47,921 bases of DNA from a virus. A program made the position numbers and the translations under genes. Shown here in pieces: positions 16,125 through 44,031 of the stretch; within the stretch, counting starts at the first letter, position 1, and each line of letters opens with the position of its first letter. Below the pieces are notes generated by a model, which saw nothing but the letters and a program-made list of their open reading frames with translations, was not told the origin of the DNA and did not search any database. The stretch lies in the IMG/VR virus record IMGVR_UViG_3300045988_102864, one strand, 5' to 3'.

Positions 16125-16257
16125 GTTACCAAATGTCCTGTTTATCGTTACCAAATGTCCTGTTTATCGTTACCAAGTGTCCTGTTTTACAGTTACCAAA
16201 TGTCCTGCTATCCGTTACCAAATGTCCTGTTTATCGTTACCAAATGTCCTGTTTAAC
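16125..16257. repeat. Iteron array: six tandem 22-23-bp repeats GTTACCAAATGTCCTGTTTATC (plasmid origin)
   Basis: Copies start at 16125, 16147, 16169, 16192, 16214 and 16236. They are contiguous with no spacers. Confidence 0.9.
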
Positions 16258-16330: not shown

Positions 16331-16808
16331 CACGAACTAAAGCGCATAAATTTTGCCTGTTGAAAACTCAAAAGCGAATACACGGTTAGTAAGCAGGAAG
16401 AGAAAATTTTTACCATATTGTAATTTTAAGCTATCTGTCATGCCTTGTCAAGATGTTTTCTAAATATTGACAAACGTCTAAATAAACATTTTTCAACGCA
16501 TTGGTAAACTGATTTACAAACATATTGACAGGGAAGTGCATTTTAGGCAAATGCCGAAAATGATTTGATAAACAGCATTTGTAAACTTAAAGAAAGATTG
16601 ACAAACCTATTAACAAACCACACTAAATATGAAGGAAACGAAATTAATGTAACTCAATCACGTTCCGCAACCAACTGTATAGAATCGCCCATTCTTTACA
16701 GTTTTTTCTTGCTATTCTTAAGTTCTATTAAAGCACCACTTATAAAGACAAGCGTGTTTATTGCTCATATCTTTAACGATTAAATCAACTTGCAGAAGAT
16801 TAAACAAT

Positions 16809-16841
16809 AAAAGAGGGTAGTTTTACAACTATCCTCTTTTA
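16809..16841. terminator. Bidirectional intrinsic terminator
   Basis: Stem AAGAGGGUAG/CUAUCCUCUU with flanking A- and T-runs, directly after the stop of CDS 16870..17478. Confidence 0.6.
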
Positions 16842-16869: not shown

Positions 16870-17478
16870 TCAATGTTTCTCAACTATGCATTCATAGTAT
16901 TTTGCGAGTTTATCTTCTCCCGCATCCTCATCGTCAAGGAAAGCGTGAGCCATTGCCGCATAGAAATCAACAGAGTTGAGATTAAACTCCTTGCCTATTT
17001 TGTAGTAATCGGAGTACATCATGTTAATTGCAGCGTAAAATTCGGCAGGGTCGCAGTCATAGCCGTGCTGCCGTCTCACCTGCTCCGTTTGTTCAAAATT
17101 CCAGTGTCTTCCGGTTGAGCCGTCGGCGTTTTTCATTTTCTCCGTCCACTCGTCCGCGTCCTCACGGGTAAATTTGTCGTGCTTTTTCCCACGTTTGCCG
17201 TAGCTCTCACGCTCACGCCCGTCATAATCGCGGCGGTCTCTCATGTCGTACTCGCCATAGTAGTCACGCTTGCCGTGGCCGTCGTACTCGTCATAGTCAG
17301 GTTGACGGCGGCGGTCATAATCGGGGTATCTGTCCTCGCGTCTATCGTATCTGTCATAATCGCGCGGTCTATGGTCACGGTCATAGTCACGCTCTTGTCT
17401 GTCGTAGCCGCCGTATTCACTGCGCTTGTCCTTGCCGCTTGACATCATGAGCAGCCAGTTAGGATTCATTCTCTTCAT
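16870..17478 (-). CDS. Cargo protein E: Arg/Asp/Tyr-rich disordered N-half plus a conserved-looking C-domain
   Basis: N-half is DYDR-type low complexity. The C-half (DEWTEKMKNADGSTGRHWNFEQTEQ...MMYSDYYKIG...) looks globular. Confidence 0.65.
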   Translation of the reverse strand: MKRMNPNWLLMMSSGKDKRSEYGGYDRQERDYDRDHRPRDYDRYDRREDRYPDYDRRRQPDYDEYDGHGKRDYYGEYDMRDRRDYDGRERESYGKRGKKHDKFTREDADEWTEKMKNADGSTGRHWNFEQTEQVRRQHGYDCDPAEFYAAINMMYSDYYKIGKEFNLNSVDFYAAMAHAFLDDEDAGEDKLAKYYECIVEKH

Positions 17479-17885
17479 ACTGTCTCACCTCCCGTTGTGG
17501 TGGTCGTCGGTGCTGTGCCGTTGATTGAGCGCAGGTCGTTGTTAGGCGCACAAGCCGGTCTGCCGAGCAGTCTAAAGCTGCCGCCCGTCGGTGTGGTGAC
17601 TACAACCGCGCTGTATCTCGTCCGTGCCCTTATCGAGCAAGCGGTCAACTGAGCGCAACAACGGTTAGTCAGCGGATATAACGTAGTGCCGTCTCCGATT
17701 GTGACGTACACGGGAGCGTTGATTGTCGTCGCTGTCGGTATTGCCTGAGCGACTACGATACAGTATTTTTCTCTCGCGTTATACGCGCCCGCCGGGAGAT
17801 TGATTATCAGATTGCCGCCGGTAAAGGACACCGACTGCGACAGGGTAAAGCGCGGACAAAGTCTGCATACATTAGTACAAGCCAT
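17475..17885 (-). CDS. Cargo protein D: Cys-rich beta-type protein with a Thr-rich tail
   Basis: MACTNVCRLC N-terminus, further Cys (CIVV, RCCAQLTAC, PAC), tail TAPTTTTTGG. Confidence 0.6.
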   Translation of the reverse strand: MACTNVCRLCPRFTLSQSVSFTGGNLIINLPAGAYNAREKYCIVVAQAIPTATTINAPVYVTIGDGTTLYPLTNRCCAQLTACSIRARTRYSAVVVTTPTGGSFRLLGRPACAPNNDLRSINGTAPTTTTTGGETV

Positions 17886-17967
17886 TTTTTATACCTCCAA
17901 AAAATCAAAAGGGAAGCGGTACGCCGCTCCCCCGAAATCGGTCACGGCTCAAAGCCGGAGTTGTGAA

Positions 17968-18719
17968 TCAATAGTTGCCGCAACCGGAACAGCCGGAATT
18001 ACATCCGTAGTTGCCGTACTGCCAAGGCGCGGGAACGTTGAATGCGGGCACGGGAGCCTTACAGCCGAGCTGACTTACAAGATACTGATTCTGCGCCTGC
18101 TGTGATGCGGCAAGCTCAAGTCCAAATATTCTCTGTGTCTGAGCCGCAATCTGCGCGTCCTTCGTCGCTATCTCCTGCGCCGTCAGTCTGTCGGATATGC
18201 CGCGGAATCCGCTATTCATCGCGTCGATTATATCGCGGGTGTTGTTAGCGGCGTTAGTGTTAATCGCGCAGGTGTCGGTTGCCATGCGGTAGCCAACGTC
18301 GGCAAATCCGCGCTCCATCGCTCTGCCGTTTTCGCAACAGCACTGCTGGAGCTGTGTCGCAAGAGCCGCCTGTCCTCTCTCAACACCGTTAAATCCCTGC
18401 ATCATAGCCACATTTGTGTCGTTAAATCCCTGCTGTGTCTGATAGCCGAGGTTGCAAATCGCGTTGCCGACGCCGTGGAAGCCGTTGAGCATTGACGAAT
18501 TCATATCGTAAAATCCGTCGCAAAGTCCGTTTTGTACGCCGCGGACGGAATCCTCCAGTCCGTTGAATCCAAACTCGCTCTGTAGGTCTGCGCGGGTAAG
18601 TCCGCCCTGAGTGCCTGCCGCCATTACGTAGGGGAGTGCGCCCATGCCCGAGGAATCGCCGACGTTTCCGCCGAAGCCGTTACGTCCCCAGCCAAAGATG
18701 ATGGCGAGAATGATTACTG
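17968..18719 (-). CDS. Cargo protein C, exon 2 (Gly/Asn/Gln-rich, (N/Q)GF repeats, Cys-rich C-terminus)
   Basis: This is the frame of ORF 17968..18744, whose only start is a TTG with no SD. It is joined to exon 1 by the group I intron. Eight (N/Q/R)GF repeats. The protein ends GCNSGCSGCGNY. Confidence 0.75.
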
Positions 18720-19131
18720 CCAATTTGTTCACGTCAAAGCGCAACCCCTGACGCAGTCTTGCCGTTATAGGTAGACTTCTGACGTTTTCACGCCAGTGCA
18801 GACTATATCTTCACCTGTATTTCTACAGGGCAACATTTTTCTTCCGTCATTAGCTTACGGTTTTACTCTCCGTCAAGGAGATAGTCGTTGAGGGTCTTCC
18901 ATGCCTTAAAAAGGTTTAGGACTGTCCCTGCTAAACACCCATTGTAGAAGCACTTAGGACTGACACCGTGCCAGTTTTTTTATTTCGCCATATGCCATCT
19001 CACTGTTTTTTCTGCTTTCGCGCCGTTCAGTTTGCCGTTTCCGACTGCTGTTTAGGTAGTGAGCTTTAGGGATTAAAAGCATTTAACGTTGAGTTTACAC
19101 CGATTACTCGATATAAAGGGTAGCCGTAGTT
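18720..19131 (-). mobile_element. Group I self-splicing intron (IA-like, T4 td-like core), no internal ORF
   Basis: R-like UCAACGACUAU (18890..18881) and S-like AAGAUAUAGUC (18811..18801) form P7. P3 is CAACGUU/AAUGUUG. P7.1, P7.2 and P8 hairpins are present. P9 is CUGGCGU-GAAA-ACGUCAG. The 3' end is UGAACAAAUUGG. P1 is GAUUAU/GUAAUC with a U.G pair at the 5' splice site. Boundaries are accurate to a few nt. Confidence 0.8.
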
Positions 19132-19237
19132 ATAATCCTACTTTTGCCCAAAGTCCTTCATTTCCAAAAAAACCACCATCGCGATTACTATTGTCTCCCT
19201 GTCCAGCAAGGAAACCTGTTAAAAGTTCGTTGCCCAT
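19132..19237 (-). CDS. Cargo protein C, exon 1 (35 codons plus 1 nt)
   Basis: SD AAAGGAGAG 7 nt upstream of ATG 19237. MGNELLTGFLAGQGDNSNRDGGFFGNEGLWAKVGL. The in-frame TAA straddles the predicted 5' splice site, as in T4 td. Confidence 0.65.
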
Positions 19238-19374
19238 TTTTTTCTCTCCTTTTCGATTTATTCATCCGCTTTCGCGTGATGTTCAAAAATTAAATATTGG
19301 ACAGTTTTTTAATCAGGTCGACTGTCAAACCGAAAAGGGAAGTGTTATTTGTTGATATTTGCTTGTATTTGTTG

Positions 19375-19602
19375 TTATTTGCTGATACCGAGTGAGCGCA
19401 TTAAATCACCAAGGTCTATACCGCGCTCTTTCGCCATATTTTGCGCCATGGTCTGGAGCTGGTGCGCGTCCTTGCCTTTGATAAGTTCGACGGCTTTTGC
19501 GTACTGCGCCCCTTGTCCCGCGAGATTGCCGAGAATATTATTCAGCGGCTGACCTGCGCCGAGAGCCTGCATTACAAGCATTTCGGGATTAATATTAGGC
19601 AT
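19375..19602 (-). CDS. Cargo protein B (75 aa, helical)
   Basis: ORF whose start overlaps the end of the upstream gene. Confidence 0.55.
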   Translation of the reverse strand: MPNINPEMLVMQALGAGQPLNNILGNLAGQGAQYAKAVELIKGKDAHQLQTMAQNMAKERGIDLGDLMRSLGISK

Positions 19603-20017
19603 TTTCCGTTACCTCTTTCCTTCCCTTAGTGGGATTTTTCATCTTTTCGACCTCCGTTTGGAGAGCGGCAAAAGCTGCGCAAAGTTTGTCAAAATCCGCA
19701 CGGGGAGTGTAGTCCGCCGTGTCCTTAGCCGGAGTTGTCGGAGGTGTGTATGCAAAATCCGCAAAATCCGACGCGCCGGTCTGCGAGTTGAATCTCTTGA
19801 GATATATCATGCCGTGCGCCATATCGGGCATAATCACTCCCGCCGCCATAAAATCGCAAGGCGTCGCGAGTGCCTCTTCACGGCTTGTGACCGGGCGGCA
19901 GATAAATCCGCTCTGTATCTGCGGTTGCGGTGCGGTCTGCTGAGGCTGCGCCTGCTGAATCTGCGGATTGTAACCGCTATAGTACGGATTTGTGTTATAA
20001 CCAAAGTTGTACGCCAT
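19595..20017 (-). CDS. Cargo protein A: Tyr/Asn/Gln/Pro-rich N-terminus plus a globular C-domain
   Basis: ORF 19595..20056 trimmed to ATG 20017 (SD GGAGGA). MAYNFGYNTNPYYSGYNPQIQQAQPQQTAPQPQIQ... Confidence 0.6.
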   Translation of the reverse strand: MAYNFGYNTNPYYSGYNPQIQQAQPQQTAPQPQIQSGFICRPVTSREEALATPCDFMAAGVIMPDMAHGMIYLKRFNSQTGASDFADFAYTPPTTPAKDTADYTPRADFDKLCAAFAALQTEVEKMKNPTKGRKEVTENA

Positions 20018-20217: not shown

Positions 20218-20237
20218 TTAACTTGCCTATAACTTGC
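20218..20237. repeat. 20-bp direct repeat, copy 2 (overlaps the stop of CDS 20227..20475)
   Basis: Identical to 20121..20140. aaaacagtc x2 (20171, 20193) lies between the copies. Confidence 0.9.
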
Positions 20238-20475
20238 CGGACTTATGTAAGATGTATACGAGCTTCACAAGAGCTGCCTTGTGCCACTTTGAGACGGTGG
20301 TGTATTCACGTCCTACTGCTTCGCACACGTCCTCCAGACAGCCGTTGTCAACATACAGTATTTTGAGCAACCGCTTGTACTCCGGCTTGAGATTGCATCG
20401 GTCAATAGCGTCCGCTATGTCCTGAGTATCGCCGACACTATGCACCGCTTGTCTGCGTTTCGCATGGTCGGTCAA
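20227..20475 (-). CDS. Small sigma-70 region-4-like HTH regulator
   Basis: 82 aa. LKPEYKRLLKILYVDNGCLEDVCEAVGREYTTVSKWHKAALVKL resembles a region 4.2 HTH. Confidence 0.5.
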   Translation of the reverse strand: MTDHAKRRQAVHSVGDTQDIADAIDRCNLKPEYKRLLKILYVDNGCLEDVCEAVGREYTTVSKWHKAALVKLVYILHKSGKL

Positions 20476-43651: not shown

Positions 43652-43939
43652 ATGAAATACTACGCACAAATGATAATCTCTACAGCTAGCTACAGTCAAT
43701 ATCTCGACCAGCCCGAGGAAATCGAGAGAAAGGAATTTACTCAACGTAACGTCAACGACTGGTGTGAGAGCTACATTGTTGACAACTACGGCAACGACGC
43801 GGACGAGCAGAGAGAGCACGGCGCGCCCGTCCTCGGAGACCTCGGATTTATCCTCACCGACGAGGACGGGGAAGAAATAGAAACTCTCTATTACCGTGAG
43901 CACCGCGCCGATTATCACGGCTCACACAAAACCCACTAA
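43652..43939 (+). CDS. Small acidic protein
   Basis: 95 aa. D+E clearly exceed K+R by eye. Confidence 0.5.
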   Translation: MKYYAQMIISTASYSQYLDQPEEIERKEFTQRNVNDWCESYIVDNYGNDADEQREHGAPVLGDLGFILTDEDGEEIETLYYREHRADYHGSHKTH

Positions 43940-44031
43940 GCAGAGTGGCGGGGGGAAAACCCCGTTAATGCGGTCTGGCAGACGGTCACAAACCCCGACA
44001 GCCGAAAGCGAAGCAAAGAAAGGAATCAATC

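Follow-up and report, generated by a model that had tools for sequence, protein, structure and literature searches.

A conserved gene cassette behind the lysis genes of gut Clostridia phages may encode a cysteine-stapled stalk-and-knob assembly

Gene organization of the cassette

The IMG/VR virus record IMGVR_UViG_3300045988_102864, a stretch of 47,921 nucleotides (nt) that is hereafter called the window, carries five tightly packed, co-oriented genes (A to E) in the list of its open reading frames (ORFs), on the minus strand between positions 20017 and 16870. In an earlier reading of the bare sequence (the original prediction), these genes had been described as a cargo operon of cross-linkable, low-complexity proteins with its own promoter and terminator, located between the lysis cassette and the plasmid origin and recalling spore coat, exosporium or endospore-appendage proteins in composition. 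The analysis presented here reveals that the five ORFs are real genes: the relatives of D fall into 3,664 clusters at 90% identity, those of C number more than 7,100, and the order A-B-C-D is kept in nearly all of 87 loci. The operon itself had been drawn too small, as the gene R82 (20475-20227) also belongs to it. The features of the unit, followed by those that flank it, are listed below.

20227-20475, minus strand: R82, sixth gene of the unit, 82 amino acids (aa), starting 3 nt past the holin stop codon
20018-20226, minus strand: control region between R82 and A
19595-20017, minus strand: gene A, ORF of 140 aa
19375-19602, minus strand: gene B, ORF of 75 aa
19148-19237, minus strand: gene C, exon 1, 30 codons encoding an acidic N-terminal tail (placed by alignment to the intron-less allele of locus L009)
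18721-19147, minus strand: predicted group I intron without an ORF, approximately 427 nt (Rfam Intron_gpI)
17968-18720, minus strand: gene C, exon 2 (phrog_16490, E-value 3e-35)
17894-17959, minus strand: two-hairpin RNA element between C and D (covariance model)
17475-17885, minus strand: gene D, ORF of 136 aa, most conserved gene of the unit
16870-17478, minus strand: gene E, ORF of 202 aa with Pfam DUF7841
16798-16841, minus strand: terminator-like hairpin predicted by folding (AAAAGAGGATAGTT...AACTACCCTCTTTT, hairpin 16841-16808), then TTTATTGTTT; it would close the unit before the iterons
22131-20926: M23/NAGPA endolysin gene, upstream of the unit
20774-20478: holin gene (PHROG 297), upstream of the unit
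16125-16255: iterons, 5.9 copies of 22 bp, downstream of the unit and followed by the Rep3 initiator gene

The holin and endolysin genes upstream, and the iterons and Rep3 gene downstream, bear out the proposed location between lysis genes and plasmid origin. Throughout this work, families were searched by comparison of hidden Markov models with sequences, and AlphaFold2 (AF2) models were computed for D and for the globular domain of E, both as monomers.

Protein D

D is far better conserved than its neighbours. The median identity of its homologues to the window protein is 66%, versus approximately 37% for A, B and C, which is the expectation for the subunit of a lattice or polymer. The protein of 136 residues starts with MACTNVCRLC, contains a pair of cysteines at positions 76-77 and ends in a PTTTTTGG tail, in line with its original description. 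An alignment of the family reveals that Cys3, Cys7 and Cys10 are invariant within the N-terminal segment of 11 residues, and that Cys42, Cys77, Cys83 and Cys112, located in or after the core, are conserved as well. The tail is rich in Thr, Ala and Gly, and its Thr/Ala character is kept across divergent homologues. The AF2 model displays an eight-stranded beta-sandwich that encompasses residues 12 through 106 (predicted local distance difference test score, pLDDT, 69; predicted template modelling score, pTM, 0.61), preceded by an unstructured N-terminal arm of 11 residues and followed by a disordered tail.

None of the D clusters, most of which are found on contigs of 30-58 kb, carries a name or a Pfam domain. 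At 50% identity, the family comprises 358 clusters, almost all of them single-domain proteins of 110-170 aa. Some D sequences seem to be fused to ROK, Terminase_2 or Big_2/YARHG domains, which was put down to artefacts of assembly or deletion. The same judgement was reached for P0061, an in-frame fusion of A and D without B and C. In locus L213 (2816-4663), the holin gene runs straight into a shortened C, followed by D and E; this arrangement represents either a defective phage or an assembly artefact.

A search of structural homologues of the D model in the PDB using Foldseek gave a best E-value of 0.16, and no entry of Ena, the endospore-appendage subunit, was found in the top 50. In BFVD, the same search returned D's own homologues and then, with template modelling (TM) scores of approximately 0.45-0.5, phage tail-fibre and collagen-repeat proteins, matched in their distal domains. 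It also returned a 294-aa protein containing DUF7841, the domain that is also found in E; this protein is possibly a D-like/DUF7841 fusion.

Protein C and its intron

Protein C contains one hydrophobic segment (AVIILAIIFGW), a CCC motif at positions 157-159 and the C-terminus GCNSGCSGCGNY, all of which had been noted originally. The eight (N/Q)GF repeats counted at that time were not recovered: strict (N/Q)GF motifs number four and xGF motifs of any kind number ten, many of the latter at a spacing of approximately 11 residues. Exon 2 encodes the predicted transmembrane helix, the GF-type repeats, the CCC motif, a coiled-coil-like segment, a PVPA(F/Y) linker and a Cys/Gly-rich tail. This tail terminates C in every homologue compared; the CCC motif is almost universal, and at least two, nearly always three to seven, cysteines are located within the last 35 residues. 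The acidic N-terminal tail and the Arg that follows the transmembrane helix would place the bulk of the protein on the cytoplasmic side. Such an orientation fits with A, B, D and E having no signal peptide.

The interruption of gene C is a predicted group I intron, in accordance with the split gene of the original prediction, and is absent from the allele of L009. The Intron_gpI model matches end to end (model positions 1-253) at 19126-18779 with 32.6 bits and an E-value of 2.7e-6 in a 1-kb search, relative to a gathering score of 50. In L009, whose D is 96% identical to that of the window, C is uninterrupted, which sets the end of exon 1 at 19148 (or 19147) and the start of exon 2 at 18720 (or 18719). 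Because the L009 allele is intron-less, the junction can be placed between ...GLW and AVI..., and the end of exon 1 is ambiguous by 1-2 nt because GGC is common to both exons. The predicted spliced protein comprises 280 residues and reads ...GNEGLW-AVIILAIIFGWG...; P0121, an uninterrupted C homologue of 280 aa, is 90% identical along its full length. The exon nucleotide at -1 of the 5' splice site appears to be G, not the usual U. A canonical P1 helix (GAUUAU/GUAAUC, with a U.G pair at 19132) was considered for the 5' splice site and rejected in view of the junction that L009 defines (19148/18720).

Among the close relatives, the intron occurs in L001-3, L220, L237 and L238 only, and it is missing from L009 and most loci. 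It is also the only segment of the operon with DNA similarity to known phages or plasmids, the matches being to introns of Staphylococcus and Enterococcus phages, of Clostridium botulinum phage c-st and of plasmids of C. botulinum and Selenomonas. In L220 (9985-10866, minus strand), and also in L237, a 293-aa reverse-strand ORF lies between B and exon 1 of C, adjoining the ORF-less intron. It resembles HNH-type homing endonucleases by motifs judged by eye, and may encode a free-standing endonuclease that mobilises the intron. Just 5' of the C ribosome-binding site, the window has a hairpin with a GNRA tetraloop (CATCACGC-GAAA-GCGGATG; 19263-19281, minus strand) that is also present in L009.

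Proteins A, B and E

Protein A is composed of a Tyr/Asn/Gln/Pro-rich N-terminus, a small core domain and a C-terminal helix, and belongs to phrog_21718, a family of unknown function. The low complexity ascribed to its N-terminus is evident from the composition, as these four amino acids make up 66% of residues 1-35 versus 15% of the rest of the protein. Homologues are found in 74 of 87 loci and keep the Y/N/Q/G/P-rich character of the N-terminus. A match of A to T4 Hoc in the PDB (E-value 0.027) was marginal and was dismissed. The 75 residues ascribed to protein B agree with the ORF at 19602-19375; its homologues, which fall in no family, occur in 56 loci, each time between A and C. The idea that B might be related to the 'sporesilk' fibres (alpha-helical A-ENA) was abandoned, nothing having been found in its support.

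In protein E, residues 16-100 (approximately 85) consist to 71% of Arg, Asp, Tyr and Glu, with eight (D/E)Y(D/Y) motifs, and precede a globular domain, an architecture that had been anticipated. The globular domain is Pfam DUF7841 (E-value 7e-28) and is predicted by AF2 as a five-helix bundle (pLDDT 88.6). No significant structural match to this domain was found in the PDB using Foldseek (best E-value 1.5, TM score below 0.32); matches to the matrix protein of human immunodeficiency virus were dismissed (E-value above 1, TM score below 0.32). The stop codon of D and the start codon of E overlap (ATGA), and E with its DUF7841 follows D in 49 of the 87 loci. In the remaining loci, D is followed by another protein of approximately 140-300 aa that is rich in Arg, Tyr and Gly, disordered, and contains the short motifs RRDSRGRY and GRYAPR.

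A structured RNA element between C and D

The spacer of 82 nt between C and D contains, in this order, hairpin 1, UGA, UUC, the GC-rich hairpin 2, UGAUUUU and the ribosome-binding site of D, and is terminator-like in appearance. In an alignment of 20 sequences, 10 of the 12 base pairs display compensatory changes. A covariance model of the element finds 66 matches in 1.02 Mb, one per locus and always right after C, and the element stays behind C even where an extra small gene precedes D. Statistics computed on the model-fitted alignment give 94% of cells paired versus 55-62% in slid controls, and 142 double changes versus 14-47. The exact pattern of hairpin 2 occurs at least 120 times in IMG/VR; 107 of 111 copies are followed by D and 107 of 108 come after C, and in total the element is bound to the C-D junction in more than 170 loci. 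No matching family was found in Rfam. We infer that the element, as a partial terminator or through mRNA processing and stability, determines how much of A-C is made relative to D-E. The extra gene located between the RNA element and D in L019, L032, L041, L043, L054 and L067 encodes a helical protein of approximately 70-90 aa.

Regulator R82 and transcription signals

R82 resembles a small helix-turn-helix (HTH) regulator of the sigma-70 region-4 or RinA/ArpU type. Its C-terminal part matches PHROG 36 (E-value 2e-7) and PHROG 248 (E-value 8e-6), both annotated as transcriptional regulator or activator, and its Pfam matches, to HTH_23 and DUF1492, are weak (DUF1492 at an E-value of 0.014, under the cut-off). 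Homologues match more firmly: that of L004 corresponds to Sigma70_r4_2 (E-value 5e-9) and that of a distant 58-kb phage to Sigma70_r4 (E-value 4e-6, above the cut-off). The PHROG and DUF1492 matches and the sigma-70 region-4-like C-terminal HTH liken R82 to the RinA and ArpU late activators of Firmicutes phages. It differs from these in that it has half the usual length, follows the holin gene instead of preceding terS, and has this cassette as its only apparent target. An R82 homologue is found directly upstream of A in 64 loci; the endolysin family of the window occurs in 9 and its holin family in 14.

The promoter and terminator of the original prediction correspond to a putative extended -10 element and terminator-like hairpin upstream of A, and to the terminator-like hairpin at the downstream end. 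The upstream hairpin (20077-20033) has a stem of 12 bp, a folding energy of -24.5 kcal/mol and a T-run behind it, and carries the extended -10 element, TGgTATAAT at 20063-20055, in its loop. The control region further contains four copies of GCAAGTTA, the first pair of which overlaps the end of R82, four TTG(C/A)AA hexamers and a GGAGG ribosome-binding site. In L001 and L010, the hairpin is preserved by compensatory changes of its stem. Of 69 distinct upstream regions, 27 contain a terminator-like hairpin (1.7 expected), 11 a TG-extended -10 (0.9 expected) and 32 a -10 that matches in at least five of six positions (15 expected); the tandem repeats ahead of the -10 are specific to each locus. 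A generic promoter scan found none upstream of A, the candidate promoter having come from the comparison of loci.

Transcripts that start at the -10 in the loop would lack the 5' arm of the hairpin, and would thus escape termination. The operon appears to be insulated from late read-through in this way. Sigma-E and sigma-K use a CATA-type -10 consensus, and no such -10 was found in the region upstream of A. The promoter looks vegetative and sigma-A-like, not of a sporulation type. As to the sign of regulation, the family of R82 implies activation and the consensus -10 implies that no activator is needed; activation is more likely than repression. In the integrated prophage L004 (6732-8253), two divergent XRE-family HTH genes and two small genes lie between the regulator and A, which suggests an extra layer of control in that lineage.

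Distribution and synteny

The order A-B-C-D was found in approximately 200 loci of phages of Oscillospiraceae, Ruminococcaceae and Lachnospiraceae, always after the lysis genes, and is essentially invariant in the 87 loci. With one genome per GTDB species, D is present in at least 80 loci, cultured strains included, and nearly all of its hosts are Oscillospiraceae, Ruminococcaceae, Acutalibacteraceae, Lachnospiraceae and related Clostridia; the labels Akkermansia, Alistipes, Phocaeicola and Treponema, which come from metagenome-assembled genomes, are probable binning errors. The low-complexity and Cys-rich features of the proteins are kept in kind across homologues that are only 30-45% identical, and so is the PVPAY linker of C.

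The cassette is carried by many different phage backbones, behind differing sets of tail and lysis genes. In the distant 58-kb phage mentioned above, holin, lysin, regulator and A-B-C-D are again found in succession, and the cassette is also carried by a phage that has its own polymerase and no detected integrase. Its place is the far end of the late region, a classic location of phage cargo, which in integrated prophages adjoins host or transfer RNA (tRNA) genes. Directly downstream of it, on the opposite strand, tRNA genes are present in L041 (4617-4687), L043 (6768-7037) and L067 (6022-6177), which is consistent with prophage integration at tRNA genes and an attachment site (att)-proximal position of the cassette. 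In L006-type loci, an extra gene of 129 aa (phrog_3754) is inserted between the regulator and A.

Searches of C and D by tblastn matched only uncultured metagenomic phages, and the search of D matched no plasmids. No literature was found on DUF7841, PF25223 or the PHROG numbers, and nothing relevant on prophage-encoded coat genes.

An alternative cassette in sister phages

A comparison of the cassette with the corresponding region of close relatives reveals a second allele. Among phages that share the window's endolysin (88-97% identity) and have enough downstream sequence, 18 carry the cassette described here, 6 carry an alternative and 1 carries a truncated variant. The alternative is located as follows.

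L218 9169-11069, also L211, L225, L226, L230, L232 and L248: alternative cassette, next to near-identical endolysin and regulator genes

The R82 regulator and the same hairpin and promoter are retained in this allele. Its first gene encodes 183 aa that begin with a hydrophobic, Gly-rich segment, contain a coiled coil and end in CNTGCGTCNGNM, and its second, in the position of D, a beta-protein of 148 aa with RRVCPRTNCC near the N-terminus. The two are separated by an analogous pair of hairpins with a U6 run. A 112-aa protein and a DUF7841 protein (E-value 1e-23) follow, and then a tyrosine integrase in place of Rep3. The best Pfam match of the 148-aa protein and of two variants (91% and 69% identical) is BclA_C, over nearly the full profile, with E-values of 4e-5 to 2.5e-4 and scores of 21-24 bits that lie below the Pfam cut-off of 38. 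Alignment of D with the 148-aa protein by hhalign revealed no homology.

Two unrelated cassettes thus point to one common design, which consists of a hydrophobic anchor and helical stalk with a Cys-rich tip, a beta-sandwich with a Cys-bearing N-terminal arm, and a DUF7841 protein. Because every close relative has one allele or the other, the cassette is less like dispensable cargo than had been assumed. The cargo of a phage-plasmid, as which it had been described, is therefore supported in part only: position, insulation and its own signals agree with that description, and the presence of an allele in every close relative does not.

Family assignment of the cassette proteins

Searches of Pfam, PHROGs, NCBIfam and PADLOC with A-E found only DUF7841 and two PHROGs of unknown function. 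No virion, replication or lysis family was among these matches, in keeping with the original view that the operon serves none of those functions. The proposed likeness to spore coat, exosporium and Ena proteins finds no counterpart at the family level: DUF3992, CotZ/Y, BclA_C and collagen remain unmatched at E-values of 1 or less, with 0 matches to DUF3992, CotZ (PF10612), BclA_C (PF18573) and collagen in 41 members of the D family and 37 of the C family. Eight distant D representatives matched none of these four families at the same threshold, and in A-E neither a CotZ (PF10612) domain nor a collagen-like GXX tract or Collagen Pfam match was found. Nothing in the PDB was accepted as a match when A, C, D and E were compared with it by sequence and by profile, and Foldseek with the predicted structures of D and E returned no Ena or BclA structure.

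The original interpretation as a whole is partly supported. Its spore coat, exosporium or appendage part failed the family-membership tests that were run, and promoter and regulator favour vegetative or lytic expression. In view of D's anatomy and the BclA_C-like allele, this part is legitimate as an analogy, in the sense that the cassette may work like such systems.

Other features of the window and of related contigs

Elsewhere, the window consists of a structural block of the siphovirus type, which includes terminase, SPP1-type portal and E-type major capsid protein. The portal and terminase genes are separated by a gut-2 RNA (Rfam RF02990, 39675-39722, minus strand) whose 48.9 bits exceed the gathering score, and a Type-P5 twister ribozyme (Rfam RF02684) is located at 43939-43998 on the plus strand with 38.3 bits, barely over the gathering score of 37.6. 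A few kilobases past the cassette, the Lachnospiraceae contig L075 (10856-11215, minus strand) carries Pistol and type II hammerhead ribozymes approximately 230 nt apart.

Proposed function of the cassette

Based on these results, we tentatively favour, at a little short of an even chance, the interpretation that this is a self-regulated accessory cassette of gut Clostridia phages that encodes a Cys-stapled assembly of a stalk (C) and a knob or polymer (D). C would be a membrane-anchored helical stalk with one transmembrane helix, repeats of approximately 11 residues, a coiled coil and a Cys/Gly-rich tip. D would provide a small beta-sandwich that serves as knob or polymer subunit, its arm being stapled by disulfides or shared metal ions to the C tail or to a neighbouring D. 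Multivalent contacts could be added by E, with its Arg/Tyr-rich disorder, DUF7841 and translational coupling to D, and by the Tyr/Gln/Pro-rich disorder of A; B, which is small, may have an accessory role. As a product of the late operon, R82 is anticipated to bind the repeats upstream of the promoter and to time expression, and the RNA element, which divides the unit into A-B-C and D-E, would set their ratio. The resulting fibre or coat-like structure would be cross-linked and located in or on the cell in which the phage is carried or expressed; its role would lie outside the virion core, replication and lysis functions.

Several points weigh against the stapled stalk and knob. No cultured phage with the cassette is among the tblastn matches of C and D, and the D model, a monomer with a pLDDT of 69, is of moderate quality only. 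The orientation of C suggests that its bulk resides in the reducing cytoplasm, where disulfides would not form until lysis or exposure to air. The RinA-like regulator, the intron in C and the fibre-like neighbours of D fit a lytic-cycle or virion role equally well, as do the swapping of alleles and the presence of the cassette in a phage without integrase. Furthermore, an allele in every close relative is unlike dispensable cargo.

The main rival explanation is a virion fibre or decoration, which we regard as unlikely. It holds that the C stalk and D knob are added late, that E or B is a chaperone and that the alleles reflect host range. D's BFVD neighbours, as distal domains of tail-fibre and collagen-like proteins, are in accordance with such a role, and near-identical phages swap cassette alleles in the manner of receptor-binding genes. 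The RinA-like regulator in the late operon, the intron in C and a carrier phage that has its own polymerase and in which no integrase was detected point in the same direction. By contrast, the structural block does not include the cassette, which comes only after the lysis genes and a terminator, and the same cassette follows different tail and lysis gene sets. The transmembrane helix of C and the long disorder of A and E are unusual in virions, receptor-binding tips are hypervariable and D is highly conserved, and in L004 divergent XRE regulators part the cassette from the late genes.

An improbable version of the appendage model places the product on the spore: a sporulating lysogen would make the proteins in its mother cell and deposit them on the forespore, where, like Ena and BclA, they would serve as components of coat, exosporium or appendages. 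The absence of DUF3992, CotZ and BclA_C matches for the cassette proteins and of Ena or BclA structures from the Foldseek results speaks against it, even though D, as modelled, has the layout of an Ena subunit and A, B, D and E lack signal peptides, as do coat and exosporium proteins. The BclA_C-like protein of the alternative allele carries an N-terminal double Cys, as in L-BclA; its BclA_C matches are nevertheless below the Pfam cut-off, and the BclA_C fold is also common in phage fibres. The host contigs hold the sporulation genes SpoIIR, CotJA/B and SpoVT, and the Tyr-, Cys- and Gln-rich composition is conserved, but the promoter has a consensus sigma-A extended -10 and no CATA-type -10, and the regulator is like phage late activators and encoded in the lysis operon.

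Little probability is also given to a role in defence or counter-defence, such as superinfection exclusion, by a membrane complex that lysogens would express from the cassette's own promoter and that an arms race would have diversified. A consensus promoter insulated from late transcription, the position at the prophage end, a membrane-anchored component and differing alleles in closely related phages would all be expected of such a complex. Known exclusion systems are single small membrane proteins or lipoproteins, which five structural-type proteins far exceed; in addition, no PADLOC family was matched and D is unusually conserved.

Least probable is a very late function in egress or after lysis. 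R82 would turn the cassette on after the lysis genes, and the cassette products would either help to break through the envelope, be it a thick wall or an S-layer, or be shed together with the progeny as a matrix. In favour of this, R82 directly adjoins the holin gene and is similar to late activators, the cassette is always directly downstream of the lysis cassette, and its cysteines could perhaps cross-link only after leaving the reducing cytoplasm. Against it, a consensus extended -10 should need no activator, no wall- or S-layer-binding domain was found in A-E with Pfam, and we know of no precedent for such a function in Gram-positive phages.

In its boldest form, which we consider doubtful, the proposal is that gut Clostridia phages carry a portable kit, existing as two alleles or more, with which Cys-stapled appendages or a coat in the style of Ena and BclA are built on the host cell, on the spore or around released virions. 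As an appendage or coat system encoded by phages, such a kit would be without precedent, and it would include a fold (DUF7841) and a cis-regulatory RNA that are both new. If the product is a cross-linked structure of the cell surface or spore, phages would have a direct influence on the surface properties, transmission or phage resistance of their hosts in the gut. Its thousands of clusters at 90% identity place the cassette with the more widespread of the unexplained gene sets that are found in phages of the dominant spore-forming Clostridia of the gut. It is also present in several cultured type strains; carriers in culture include Anaerotruncus colihominis DSM 17241 (L062), Flintibacter muris DSM 110149 (L060), Muriventricola aceti (L016) and Agathobaculum desmolans ATCC 43058 (L064). 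Whatever the function, the DUF7841 fold, the strongly conserved D and the covarying RNA element between C and D offer new handles.

Comparison with known systems

Prophage morons, or lysogenic-conversion genes, occupy the junction between lysis genes and att, as exemplified by the toxin genes of Staphylococcus aureus and Streptococcus pyogenes prophages. The cassette is similar in that it follows the lysis genes at the prophage end, has a putative promoter and terminator of its own, and is found on different backbones. It differs in its six genes, dedicated regulator and internal RNA element, and in having no secreted product. Moreover, one of its two alleles is present in every close relative examined, so that its occurrence is not sporadic, and it is also found in a phage-plasmid and in a phage without a detected integrase.

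Cassettes of tail fibres and their chaperones share with it a fold, that of D, which resembles distal fibre domains in BFVD, as well as the exchange of alleles and coupled small downstream genes. Unlike these cassettes, the present one is located outside the tail module, contains a transmembrane helix and long disordered regions, has a highly conserved knob, and forms what appears to be an insulated transcription unit.

The nap glycoprotein BclA, which has a collagen stalk and a C1q/TNF-like BclA_C knob, has the stalk-plus-knob logic in common with the cassette, and collagen-repeat proteins are among the BFVD neighbours of D. In the cassette, however, stalk and knob would be separate polypeptides, the stalk is predicted to be helical and has no GXX repeats, and D has no BclA_C match.

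Ena subunits are jellyrolls of approximately 100 residues and eight strands that follow a flexible connector, and cysteines of the connector bond core cysteines of neighbouring subunits. In the L-ENA system of Bacillus, L-BclA has an N-terminal double Cys that is proposed to dock it onto the fibre. The cassette departs from the Ena clusters in having no DUF3992, CotZ or collagen-repeat homology and no Foldseek match to solved Ena structures, in its anchor, which would be a transmembrane and coiled-coil protein, and in being phage-borne, with a sigma-A-type promoter and a phage-type regulator; its hosts are gut Clostridia and not the Bacillus cereus group. What it may share with these clusters (ena1ABC; ena3, composed of exsL, l-bclA and ena3A) is an anchor combined with small beta-sandwich subunits of approximately 100 residues, linked by cysteines and made without signal peptides. 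D, as modelled, has the layout of an Ena subunit, with a Cys-bearing N-terminal arm before a predicted eight-stranded sandwich (pLDDT 69), and the BclA_C-like protein of the alternative allele, with its NCC motif, parallels the C1q/BclA_C-type knob with a double Cys in the ena3 cluster.

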